From: an uncultured Candidatus Saccharibacteria bacterium
Lineage (GTDB): Bacteria > Patescibacteriota > Minisyncoccia > Phycocordibacterales > DAORIS01
Reading direction: 5' to 3'
Length of the DNA stretch: 64,000 bases
Assembly: GCA_964644035.1 (NCBI GenBank)
Contig: CAZXUH010000001.1
Coordinates: 195,712 to 259,711 of the forward strand
Part shown: positions 29,323 to 32,235 of the stretch, piece by piece
Layout: each line of letters opens with the position of its first letter
Numbering within the stretch: position 1 is the stretch's first letter
Notes under the pieces: generated by a model
Database searches by the model: none
Told to the model about the DNA's origin: nothing
The model's input: the letters and a program-made list of their open reading frames with translations, nothing else
Translations under genes and position numbers: made by a program

Positions 29323-30162
29323 ATGAAAGAATTCAAAATCGTTAAGCAAAACGGAGTTACTGAAATATTTGATCCTCGTAAGCTCGTCGATTCGCTCCAG
29401 CGAGTAGGCACAAGCGAAAGTGTCGCTGAGGCTATTGTCAGAGAGGTCGAATCAGGTGCATTTGAGGGAATGACGACCAACGACATCTATACCAAAGCTT
29501 TTGAAATCCTTCACAATGCCCAAAGGCGTATTGCGGCTCGATATTCGGTACGACGCGCAATTATAGAACTCGGCCCAACTGGTTTTCCGTTTGAAAAATT
29601 CATTTCTCATATTTTCTCAGCTGAAGGTTATCAGACTATGACCGACCAGATGATGGTAGGTGAATGTGCTGAACACGAAGTCGATGTGGTGGCCTTTAAC
29701 GACAAAGAACTGATCGCAGTTGAAGTAAAATTCCACAATGAACTCGGTATAAAATCAGATCTCAAGGTAGCTCTGTACATAAAAGCTCGCATCGATGACC
29801 TGAAAGACGCTGAGCATATGATCCATGGTGAAAAAAGAAAACTTACCAACGGCTGGCTCATTACCAATACCAAATTTACACAAAGCGCGATCAATTATGC
29901 TCTCTGTAAGAATCTCAATTTAATTGGTTGGAATTATCCTACAAATAGAAGCCTTGAGGATTTGATTATTAAATACAATCTGTATCCGATTACATGTCTA
30001 ACCTCACTCGATGCATTTGATCGTAAAACACTGATAGAAAAAGGTTTGGTATTGGTCAGCGACATACAAAATGACCCAAATATTCTCAAGGATATAGGCA
30101 AAGCGCCGGAAAGGGTACAACACATTCTCGACGAAATCGCAATTCTTTTCTCAAAACAATAG
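29323..30162 (+). CDS. ATP-cone domain fused to Mrr-like (PD-(D/E)XK) restriction-endonuclease domain
   Basis: N-terminus KIVKQNGVTEIFDPRKLVDSLQRVG (ATP-cone); then FEKFISHIFSAEGYQTM ... DVVAFND..IAVEVKFHN (Mrr_cat-type FE..G(Y) and D..E.K blocks). Confidence 0.65.
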   Translation: MKEFKIVKQNGVTEIFDPRKLVDSLQRVGTSESVAEAIVREVESGAFEGMTTNDIYTKAFEILHNAQRRIAARYSVRRAIIELGPTGFPFEKFISHIFSAEGYQTMTDQMMVGECAEHEVDVVAFNDKELIAVEVKFHNELGIKSDLKVALYIKARIDDLKDAEHMIHGEKRKLTNGWLITNTKFTQSAINYALCKNLNLIGWNYPTNRSLEDLIIKYNLYPITCLTSLDAFDRKTLIEKGLVLVSDIQNDPNILKDIGKAPERVQHILDEIAILFSKQ

Positions 30163-30183
30163 GTGGTATATAATATCCGCATT

Positions 30184-30717
30184 ATGACAAATTACGAAAA
30201 ATACTGGATTCATGGAGTGATAGCAATTGTTGGACTCGTAGTCGGTTTCGTAGGTGGAGCATATTGGAAAGCGTGGGATAATAAGCAGGAATACGAACTT
30301 CCTGAAGTCGAAGATATAGCTACAAGCACGCTCAATGGCATATCTGGCACAAATACGTCTAATACAAACGTGCAGTCATCATCAGAGGCTGTTGGTGCTA
30401 AGACATACTCGATTTATGTTCCAAATCAAAAGGCAGGCAACAGGGTTATTGTCGAATCGATCTCTGTCAAAGATCCTAGCTGGGTGGTGATCACTGAAGA
30501 TGACAATGGTTCACCTGCCTGGATTCTTGGCGCACAGAAATTCTTCCCGGGAACAGTCACTGGATCAGTCGGCGTATTGCGCGACACAGTGCCAGGCCGC
30601 AGATACCACGCTATTATTTACAATGATAACGGCGACAATAAATTTGATTTCAAAGTCGATGGTCCCATTACCGACAATGACAGTAAGAGCATTGAGTCTA
30701 TTTTCATAGTCTCATAG
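30184..30717 (+). CDS. Membrane-anchored protein of unknown function
   Basis: Single N-terminal TM (WIHGVIAIVGLVVGFVGGAYW), S/T-rich linker, beta-rich C-domain; TATAAT overlaps GTG 30163. Confidence 0.45.
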   Translation: MTNYEKYWIHGVIAIVGLVVGFVGGAYWKAWDNKQEYELPEVEDIATSTLNGISGTNTSNTNVQSSSEAVGAKTYSIYVPNQKAGNRVIVESISVKDPSWVVITEDDNGSPAWILGAQKFFPGTVTGSVGVLRDTVPGRRYHAIIYNDNGDNKFDFKVDGPITDNDSKSIESIFIVS

Positions 30718-30741
30718 TAAGAATGTATAGTAAGAAGGTAA

Positions 30742-31614
30742 ATGTCAGACGGATTCAATTATAAAATAAGAACTTGGGGGAATTTTGACCCTAAGACGAA
30801 AGCACCGTTTAAGCTTAGTAGATCGAAGGTTGATCTATTCATGACTTGCAAGCGGTGTTTTTATCTTGACCAAAGGCTCGGTGTCGCACGACCCAAATCA
30901 TTTCCTTTCAACCTCAACAACGCCGTCGACACACTTCTCAAGAAAGAATTCGATATTCATCGACTCAATCAATCGAAACATCCTCTGGTAAAGGCCTACG
31001 GTCTCGATGCTGTGCCTTTTGCACATGAATCAATGGAAATCTGGCGAGATGCCCTTCGCAACGGCATTATGCATCACCATGAACCGAGCAATCTGCTTCT
31101 ACGAGGTGGTGTCGACGATGTCTGGATCAATAAAGAAGGCGAAATAATTATTGTCGATTACAAAGCGACGAGCAAAGACGGTGAAATTACGCTCGACGCA
31201 CAATGGCAAGATGGGTATAAGCGCCAAATGGAAATCTATCAATGGCTTTTCGCTCAAAATGATTTCAAGGTTTCTCCGACTGGATATTTTGTGTATGTAA
31301 ATGGTAAGACCGATAGGGAAGCATTCGATGCCAAGCTTGAATTTGATATTAAGCTCATTCCGTATACAGGTACAACTGATTGGATACCAAAAGTGCTTAT
31401 TGCGATTAGAAAATGTCTCGAAGATGATCGTATTCCAGCTGCAGCAGAAGATTGTGAATACTGCGCATATCTAAAAGCTGTCAGACAAGCCGATGCGAGC
31501 AAGAATGTGACCCAAAAAACTACTGTTGTAACAGAAGCACCTAAACCAAAAGCAAAGAAGAAACGTGCACCCAAGAAAGTTCCTCCTGCACACAAAATGC
31601 CAACTTTGTTCTAA
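30742..31614 (+). CDS. Cas4/RecB-like PD-(D/E)XK nuclease with putative Fe-S cysteines and Lys-rich tail (stand-alone, no CRISPR nearby)
   Basis: CKRC near N-terminus, GGVDDV..IIIVDYKATSK (D..D.K core), QMEIYQ (QhxxY), C-x10-C-x2-C near C-terminus, KPKAKKKRAPKK tail. Confidence 0.6.
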   Translation: MSDGFNYKIRTWGNFDPKTKAPFKLSRSKVDLFMTCKRCFYLDQRLGVARPKSFPFNLNNAVDTLLKKEFDIHRLNQSKHPLVKAYGLDAVPFAHESMEIWRDALRNGIMHHHEPSNLLLRGGVDDVWINKEGEIIIVDYKATSKDGEITLDAQWQDGYKRQMEIYQWLFAQNDFKVSPTGYFVYVNGKTDREAFDAKLEFDIKLIPYTGTTDWIPKVLIAIRKCLEDDRIPAAAEDCEYCAYLKAVRQADASKNVTQKTTVVTEAPKPKAKKKRAPKKVPPAHKMPTLF

Positions 31615-31623
31615 TATAAGGAC

Positions 31624-32235
31624 ATGGATGATACTCCGGAGTCACGTAAAGAGGCGCTGAAGAAGATACGAGATGAAGTGCTTGCATTGTCTTCTTCGCC
31701 TCTATATGAATTTAGAACTAAGAATAAATATTTTCCTGTTATCGGCGAGGGCAATCACTTCGCGGAAATCATGTTCGTAGGTGAGGCACCAGGTAGAAAC
31801 GAAGCCGAACAAGGCAGACCTTTCTGCGGTGCGGCAGGTAAAATTCTCGATGAACTCCTGCAGAGCGTCGGCCTAAAAAGAGAAGAGATATACATCACCA
31901 ATATCGTCAAAGACCGTCCTCCGCAAAATCGTGATCCATTGCCAAGTGAAATAGAATCATACGGGCCATTCCTTGACCGTCAGATAGAAATCATCAAACC
32001 AAAGAAAATCGTCACCCTTGGACGCTATTCAATGACATATATCATGAACAAATTCGACCTCGACTTCGATATTGAACCCATCTCAAAAGCTCACGGCAAA
32101 GCCTACACAACCCAAGCTTCCTACGGCCAAATTCAAATCATTGCTCAATATCATCCAGCTGCTTGTATCTACAATCAATCACTAAAAGATGTACTGAAAG
32201 AAGATTTTAAGACGATTACCAAGATAGGAAAGTAA
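31624..32235 (+). CDS. Family 4 uracil-DNA glycosylase
   Basis: FVGEAPGRNEAEQGRPFCGAAGKILDELL motif block. Confidence 0.8.
   Translation: MDDTPESRKEALKKIRDEVLALSSSPLYEFRTKNKYFPVIGEGNHFAEIMFVGEAPGRNEAEQGRPFCGAAGKILDELLQSVGLKREEIYITNIVKDRPPQNRDPLPSEIESYGPFLDRQIEIIKPKKIVTLGRYSMTYIMNKFDLDFDIEPISKAHGKAYTTQASYGQIQIIAQYHPAACIYNQSLKDVLKEDFKTITKIGK

Follow-up and report, generated by a model that had tools for sequence, protein, structure and literature searches.

An ATP-cone-Mrr_cat nuclease of Paceibacteria and three genes that follow it in a housekeeping gene array

The ATP-cones of NrdR and of ribonucleotide reductase (RNR) bind ATP or dATP and act by a change in oligomeric state. A nucleotide-sensing N-terminal domain followed by an effector with the restriction endonuclease fold is also the layout of Can2/Card1 and Cdn1, which use a CARF sensor, and the Mrr_cat nuclease core is found in the Mrr- and MspJI-type Type IV enzymes. 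The closest described protein is AF1548 from Archaeoglobus fulgidus, the crystallized chain of which (1Y88) consists of Mrr_cat and AF1548-like_C domains and which the GOS paper predicted to be a restriction-type endonuclease with the residues D38, E51, and K53 (PMC1821046). Our literature search found AF1548 only there, as that prediction, and no paper among those searched connects ATP-cones with nucleases, Mrr, or Patescibacteria. Here we describe a 64,000-nucleotide stretch of contig CAZXUH010000001.1 from an uncultured Patescibacteriota bacterium (the window; G+C of ~41%), in which a gene encoding a full-length member of this family, named ACM for its ATP-cone and Mrr_cat domains, is followed by genes for a DUF7282 protein, a Cas4-like nuclease, and a family-4 uracil-DNA glycosylase (UDG4). 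A preliminary description of the sequence suggested that the four genes could be a nucleotide-pool-gated restriction or defense module or a repair cassette. Our analysis makes it fairly probable that they are independent DNA-maintenance genes, together with one filler, within a vertically inherited housekeeping array of Paceibacteria and that they form no dedicated system.

This reading is based upon 80 loci from different species genomes, which were retrieved through ACM and searched by tblastn with the window proteins. The conserved order is LeuRS, a sigma70-r4/HARE-HTH protein, a 409-aa protein, MltG, MnmA, ACM, a slot of variable content, AlaRS, two further proteins, S13, S11, S4, and RpoA. 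When linkage is counted only in loci with enough flank, MnmA is near ACM in 65 of 67 loci (97%) and AlaRS in 51 of 53 (96%), whereas UDG4 is near it (within 3.5 kb) in 49 of 61 (80%), the Cas4-like nuclease in 20 of 61 (33%), and DUF7282 in 2 of 61 (3%). The four genes are not a conserved unit. Their exact order is seen elsewhere only in the closest relative (L091), and UDG4 is absent from the next closest (L090).

Between ACM and AlaRS, the slot measures 46 to 6,615 bp. UDG4 is found in it in 49 of 63 loci and the Cas4-like nuclease in 20 of 63, along with genes encoding peptidase M3 (20 loci), peptidase M29 (10 loci), MgtC (6 loci), peptidase M16, PCMT, and an HD/YfbR-like hydrolase (5 loci each), a DnaQ-like exonuclease (3 loci), and DUF7282 (2 loci). 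No methyltransferase or defense gene is among these ten families identified via Pfam; about 55 singleton open reading frames (ORFs) and several small clusters lie outside the identified set. The internal order of the slot is stable, running from ACM through DUF7282, MgtC, the PDDEXK nuclease (or the HD hydrolase or exonuclease), PCMT, UDG4, and the peptidases to AlaRS, which is consistent with descent plus gains and losses. The simplest reading of the apparent module is that it represents inherited gene order.

All four ORFs were confirmed at the positions and on the strand first assigned to them (Table 1). They are codirectional and tightly spaced, as had been noted, but this holds only as a description and not as a signal, since it is the local background: 46 genes in succession (16.3 to 63.6 kb of the window) are all on the + strand, with a median intergenic gap of 48 nt and gaps of ≤50 nt in 53% of cases. 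The run of short gaps begins at 24920, upstream of the four genes, and takes in MltG and MnmA. The four genes share their direction, and probably their transcript, with LeuRS, MltG, and MnmA. The transcription unit that contains them probably ends at a terminator-like hairpin downstream of UDG4; this hairpin is absent from the output of a consensus terminator scan, and the closest relative has a comparable hairpin and T-run after its UDG gene.

Table 1. Features of the ACM region, with positions counted from the first nucleotide of the window
Feature	Position	Strand	Basis or remark
MnmA (tRNA 2-thiouridylase), upstream housekeeping anchor	28224-29309	+	Pfam; 13 nt before ACM
ACM (ATP-cone + Mrr_cat nuclease), 279 aa	29323-30162	+	ORF list, Pfam
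ATP-cone of ACM, residues ~5-79	29335-29559	+	Pfam
Mrr_cat PD-(D/E)XK core of ACM, residues ~87-201	29581-29925	+	Pfam
AF1548-like C-terminal helical domain of ACM, residues ~202-276	29926-30150	+	
Membrane-anchored DUF7282 protein	30184-30717	+	Pfam; ORF opens at GTG 30163, likely start ATG 30184
Four-cysteine RecB/Cas4-type nuclease	30742-31614	+	Pfam PDDEXK_1
Family-4 uracil-DNA glycosylase (UDG4)	31624-32235	+	Pfam UDG, NCBIfam TIGR00758
70-nt cloverleaf-like RNA	32330-32399	+	In the 313-nt UDG4-alaS gap; z -4.0 for 32320-32410
Terminator-like hairpin, U-rich 3' side	32469-32502	+	Fold -17.3 kcal/mol, z -4.7
AlaRS, 614 aa, downstream housekeeping anchor	32549-34393	+	Pfam

Both domains of ACM match their Pfam profiles above the cutoff, with 28.7 bits versus 25.8 for the ATP-cone (PF03477, residues 5 to 79) and 34.4 bits versus 21 for Mrr_cat, so that the fusion first recognized from the sequence is upheld, as are its motifs FEKFISHIFSAEGY and DVVAF..VEVK. 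PF22357, which is recorded for ACM homologues, did not reach an E value of 0.1 on the window protein itself. The Mrr_cat core has the TNTKF...A..YA motif in common with the Mrr/MspJI-type Type IV enzymes. However, Pfam and Foldseek revealed no domain that reads modified DNA, such as Mrr_N or SRA, leaving the ATP-cone as the sole N-terminal domain, and ACM is neither patchy in its occurrence nor borne on islands.

A profile of the ACM family matches 1Y88 (“hypothetical protein AF1548”) over residues 93 to 276 with an E value of 1e-39, and 1Y88 is also the best Foldseek match (TMt of 0.77) of the predicted ACM model (pLDDT of 87.7). The nuclease domains of Can2/Card1, Cdn1, R2 elements, and MspJI/AspBHI match as well, with those of Can2/Card1 and Cdn1 next best after 1Y88. 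ACM resembles Can2/Card1 and Cdn1 in placing a nucleotide sensor before the effector, but its sensor is an ATP-cone instead of a CARF domain, there is no CRISPR or cyclase context, and ACM belongs to the syntenic core and not to the accessory defense genes. The N terminus of the model matches NrdR (9fxk, 9fvr, and 7p37) and RNR cones with a root mean square deviation of 2.0 to 3.2 Å over 80 to 90 residues, the best being 2.0 to 2.4 Å over ~82 residues; the K...E.F...K pattern is shared with those cones, as is the C-terminal RY of the ACM cone. Here the difference is in the output domain, which is a PD-(D/E)XK nuclease in ACM and a Zn-ribbon DNA binder or a reductase in NrdR and RNR, and in the lack of a genomic link to nrd genes.

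Among 25 bacterial and archaeal sequences, cone residues K8, G11, K20, and Y74 and nuclease residues E91, D121, E134, and K136 (E-D-ExK) are invariant, and E14 and F16 of the cone are nearly invariant across bacteria and archaea. The cone and the nuclease are joined by an invariant LGPxGFxFE linker, which contains the catalytic-helix glutamate. The D-ExK residues match D38, E51, and K53 as predicted for AF1548 (PMC1821046). Because the sensor and the catalytic residues are both strictly conserved and are connected by an invariant linker, we infer that ACM is an ATP/dATP-gated nuclease. For this protein, the sensor-plus-nuclease logic of the preliminary description is reasonable. ATP or dATP bound to the cone would change how the protein oligomerizes or how its domains pack, as in RNR and NrdR. 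The nuclease would thereby be switched on or off, and DNA cutting, whether for repair incision, processing, or nucleic-acid turnover, would track the adenine-nucleotide pool.

The family is large and uniform. More than 4,157 homologues of ~275 to 285 aa and ~50% identity carry names from Parcubacteria/Paceibacteria metagenome bins; in a 50%-identity library, 443 clusters match with E values of ≤1e-30, nearly all of them ~280 aa long and matched end to end; and at least 583 species genomes encode ACM. Across the loci, the mean identity is 49.6% for ACM versus 53% for MnmA and 52% for AlaRS; the divergence of ACM runs at the rate of these housekeeping proteins. A search with the AF1548 sequence leads to archaeal proteins of 262 to 280 aa that carry ATP-cone, Mrr_cat, and AF1548-like_C domains in Archaeoglobi, Geoglobus, Ferroglobus, Nanoarchaeota, Aenigmarchaeota, and Hadesarchaea. 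ACM represents the AF1548 family in its full-length form, with a fixed architecture of ~280 aa in Paceibacteria, Archaeoglobi, and DPANN archaea.

The ATP-cone-nuclease fusion is ancestral to the family, because the 35% identity between the window protein and a 265-aa archaeal orthologue that is 99% identical to AF1548 (P0241) extends over the full length and both domains. The crystallized chain of AF1548 corresponds to ACM residues 93 to 276, whereas full-length archaeal orthologues have the same layout of cone, nuclease, and C-terminal domain as ACM. P0241 aligns with the 1Y88 chain only from its residue ~90, and the sole solved structure of the family is therefore without the ATP-cone. It is also without the invariant linker that bears the catalytic-helix glutamate. 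Judging from this alignment, the original ORF call for AF1548 was evidently too short.

A conserved partner of ACM across the two domains of life was sought in seven archaeal contexts and rejected, as they have no partner gene in common. The archaeal neighbors vary and include CorA with DUF389, DJ-1 with a glutamate-synthase-domain protein, a thermosome gene with PurB, and a restriction-modification pair. Genes for aminoacyl-tRNA synthetases are found ~0.5 to 5 kb from ACM in four of the seven contexts (L088, L156, L155, and L158), namely, AlaRS on the Aenigmarchaeota and Nanoarchaeota contigs, SepRS in Hadesarchaea, and LeuRS in another archaeon. These genes recall the LeuRS and AlaRS genes of the Paceibacteria array; by a rough estimate, their frequency is near chance for small genomes. 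We also found an MgtC-family gene directly 3' of ACM in six Paceibacteria loci (L018, L021, L025, L034, L047, and L055), and in Ferroglobus placidus (L087, position 5001) a gene for the Mg2+ transporter CorA overlaps the start of ACM. The presence of MgtC or CorA beside ACM may represent a link between Mg2+ and ATP or a coincidence.

The third gene product matches PDDEXK_1 (E value of 5e-13), and its invariant residues include D125/D126, D139-Y-K141, and Q162..Y166 as well as C36/C39, C225, C238, and C241. Its assignment as a RecB/Cas4-like nuclease is thereby borne out, along with the QMEIY and DD..DYK motifs and the Lys-rich tail, although the cysteine spacing given as C-x10-C-x2-C is in fact C225-x12-C238-x2-C241, plus C36/C39. 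The RecB-type D..D.K and QxxxY motifs and the 1+3 cysteine pattern are those of Cas4, the AdnAB/AddB nuclease domains, Exo5, and MGME1, and Foldseek matches of its model (pLDDT of 81) to AdnAB nuclease domains, Cas4 SSO0001, RecE, MGME1, and Exo5 are at the superfamily level (TM of 0.3 to 0.5). A bona fide Cas4 was rejected on a TIGR00372 (cas4) score of 26.5 bits, below the cutoff of 65, and on its context: a scan of the window gave no CRISPR array or repeat array, and the neighbors of the gene are non-cas genes. The protein also differs from those relatives in standing alone without a helicase and in its 60 to 70% identity across Patescibacteria.

At least 8,000 homologues at this level of identity are found in many Patescibacteria lineages, and those of ~64% identity in Portnoy-, Yanofsky-, and Falkowbacteria have unrelated housekeeping neighbors, with no ACM or UDG nearby. 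The Cas4-like nuclease is a Patescibacteria-wide core enzyme. A phage origin was also considered, as homologues occur on 14 “viral” contigs, and rejected; three of the 14 also carry an MltG homologue, and these contigs are therefore probably cellular Patescibacteria fragments. In Yanofskybacteria (L083, 6765-7226) and Falkowbacteria (L085, 6770-7291), a DUF192 gene is found directly 3' of the Cas4-like gene, a pairing that is absent from the window.

The disordered Lys-rich tail of the nuclease ends in TLF. In a pool of 240 retrieved sequences, which combines 120 Cas4-like and 120 archaeal AF1548 homologues unseparated, a variable disordered Lys-rich tail with LF at its very end occurs in 46, and in 38 of these 46 the ending is [S/T]LF; the LF-tailed sequences inspected by eye are Cas4-like, and the rest are short-tailed. 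This ending (C terminus of the window protein, 31500-31614) resembles the final residues of QL[SD]LF, the motif for beta-clamp binding in bacteria, and may be a tethering peptide. The enzyme would serve replication or repair as an exonuclease acting on 5' ends or flaps, possibly with this tail as a tether.

The fourth gene product matches the Pfam UDG profile (E value of 1.9e-32) and reaches 202.7 bits against TIGR00758 (UDG_fam4), well above the cutoff of 125.3, in agreement with its earlier assignment to family 4. Like the Sulfolobus tokodaii (4zbx) and Thermus (1ui0) enzymes, it has motif A, the F.GAAG motif, and motif B, which appear as GEAPG, FCGAAG, and HPAA in the alignment with 4zbx (187 bits). 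However, it differs from them in the loss of all four cysteine ligands of the [4Fe-4S] cluster, which are replaced by L22, S25, D97, and Y113. The replacement is shared by 43 of 43 Paceibacteria UDG4 homologues from the slots of L001 to L080. Because motifs A and B are intact while the four cysteines are replaced, we place these proteins as a cluster-free clade of family 4. The adjacent Cas4-like nuclease, unlike UDG4, retains its four cysteines. As a member of its family, the cluster-free UDG4 would initiate base-excision repair of uracil.

The second gene product, first described as a single-TM protein, does have a hydrophobic N terminus, as judged by eye, but it also carries a DUF7282 domain after it (E value of 1.2e-9). 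Its gene is limited to close relatives (L090 and L091, plus L018, L037, and L050) and is a recent lineage-specific insertion.

Several points weigh against reading the four genes as independent members of an inherited array. The loci were selected via ACM, and the frequency of ACM among all Paceibacteria is not deducible from the 80. The nuclease domain of ACM resembles ligand-activated defense nucleases (Can2/Card1 and Cdn1) and Type IV MspJI and AspBHI in Foldseek, and the binding of ATP/dATP by ACM and its gating are predicted from conserved residues and fold. In addition, UDG4 and ACM have stayed adjacent after two independent rearrangements, which hints at more than inherited synteny: UDG4 is upstream of ACM in one locus (L001, 9366-10801), and in two others (L005, 10001-11757; L009, 17-2320), the pair follows RF/S2/EF-Ts and precedes a Cu-ATPase, and neither MnmA nor AlaRS is close by. 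Such retention argues for a loose cassette for the repair of uracil or deaminated bases that would unite ACM with UDG4 and, in loci that have it, with the Cas4-like nuclease; in it, UDG4 would remove uracil, ACM would incise or process the intermediate only if ATP/dATP signals that resynthesis is possible, and the Fe-S nuclease would trim the 5' flap. The frequency of UDG4 within 3.5 kb of ACM (49/61 loci) points the same way, and the gene directly 3' of ACM is often that of a DNA or nucleotide enzyme (UDG4 in 17 loci, PDDEXK in 16, HD/YfbR-like in 4, and DnaQ-like exonuclease in 3); the terminator-like hairpin after UDG4, in the window as in L091, would also suit a cassette. However, 20% of loci have no UDG4 in the slot, among them the close relative L090; genes for MgtC, PCMT, and peptidases are interspersed; and the housekeeping neighbors are linked to ACM more tightly than UDG4 is. 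Furthermore, no UDG is found beside any of the seven archaeal ACM genes, and the EndoV and AAG-type glycosylase genes that are 3 to 4 kb off in two of them are within chance expectation. Weighing the two rearrangement events against the 20% absence of UDG4, we therefore regard the cassette as improbable. Of the two proposals in the preliminary description it is the closer one, and it holds only loosely, mainly for ACM and UDG4.

The other proposal, taken here as a Type IV-like restriction or abortive-infection module gated by the nucleotide pool, would have ACM cleave modified or foreign DNA once infection disturbs ATP/dATP, with assistance from the Cas4-like nuclease. The Mrr_cat core, the similarity in fold to MspJI/AspBHI and to the cA4-activated Can2/Card1 nucleases, and the restriction-modification pair beside one archaeal ACM are in its favor, and a methyltransferase is not required by Type IV enzymes. 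PADLOC detected no system and gave only weak single-domain matches, of which PDC-S02 (E value of 2.9e-5) could be counted for defense; Cas4 models reached 4e-8 at best, and DUF7282 and UDG4 matched nothing. No match to ACM was found in PHROGs or among 2.9 M viral contigs. ACM lacks a modified-DNA reader, the identified slot families include no defense gene, the window has no CRISPR array, and the Cas4-like gene, a core gene throughout the phylum, is located elsewhere in other lineages. The context of ACM is not accessory, patchy, or island-like: in 80 genomes the gene keeps its place in a housekeeping backbone, with MnmA before it and AlaRS beyond the slot, and it has a uniform architecture and a housekeeping rate of divergence. 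On the PADLOC, PHROG, and viral-contig scans, the identified slot families, and the synteny statistics, we reject the defense-island reading and hold a defense module to be very unlikely. ACM could also be an NrdR-like, ATP/dATP-dependent regulator that binds DNA through its nuclease fold and C-terminal helical domain without cutting it, since its cone is closest in fold to those of NrdR and some sources label the homologues “NrdR family.” However, the retention of invariant E91, D121, E134, and K136 is unexpected in a noncatalytic binder, and no RNR gene adjoins ACM in any locus examined, which makes such a regulator exceedingly improbable.

The gap between UDG4 and alaS holds an RNA with the outline of a tRNA. 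Its acceptor stem (GGGCCUG/CAGGUCC-A), with the AlaRS identity pair G3.U70 and A73, is almost identical to that of the window tRNA-Ala (5365-5438), and its T arm is of the canonical form. The D hairpin directly adjoins the acceptor stem, 8 bp make up the anticodon-like stem, whose loop is UUUGUCAU, and a single nucleotide forms the variable region. Neither ARAGORN nor Rfam calls the element. A pattern scan of metagenomes yielded 38 distinct 70-nt relatives (elements in L106 to L154), most of which fold alike, with compensatory changes in the D hairpin and at pair 6:67 and with varied “anticodon” loops, often CUUACCA; 3 of 16 tested loci reach the Rfam tRNA threshold. A conserved alaS leader was rejected as the identity of the element, as the relatives elsewhere are not beside alaS and the closest relative is without it. 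The window AlaRS itself is short, with tRNA-synt_2c and tRNA_SAD domains and without the C-terminal DHHA1/C-Ala part; the archaeal AlaRS proteins in L088 and L156 have 866 to 893 aa.

Read as independent genes in an inherited array, the four genes make an ordinary cluster, and in streamlined, single-strand-biased Patescibacteria genomes adjacency needs a synteny baseline before it is read as a module. The part of note is the ACM family, with its invariant sensor and catalytic residues, its place among the core genes of a large bacterial class, its presence in Archaeoglobi and DPANN archaea, and a solved structure without the sensor. A more specific role, which we put forward as speculative and unlikely, is that of a checkpoint nuclease in nucleotide-auxotrophic small-genome symbionts (Paceibacteria and DPANN) and some other archaea, where the cone would read dATP/ATP and license incision only if repair synthesis can be completed, with UDG4 as the partner in Paceibacteria. 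If this is true, the cone of ACM would be the first one shown to govern an enzyme that is neither part of ribonucleotide reduction nor its regulator. If ATP/dATP does gate ACM, ATP-cone allostery would extend beyond RNR and NrdR, and ACM could explain how organisms that depend upon salvaged nucleotides coordinate DNA cutting with nucleotide supply.

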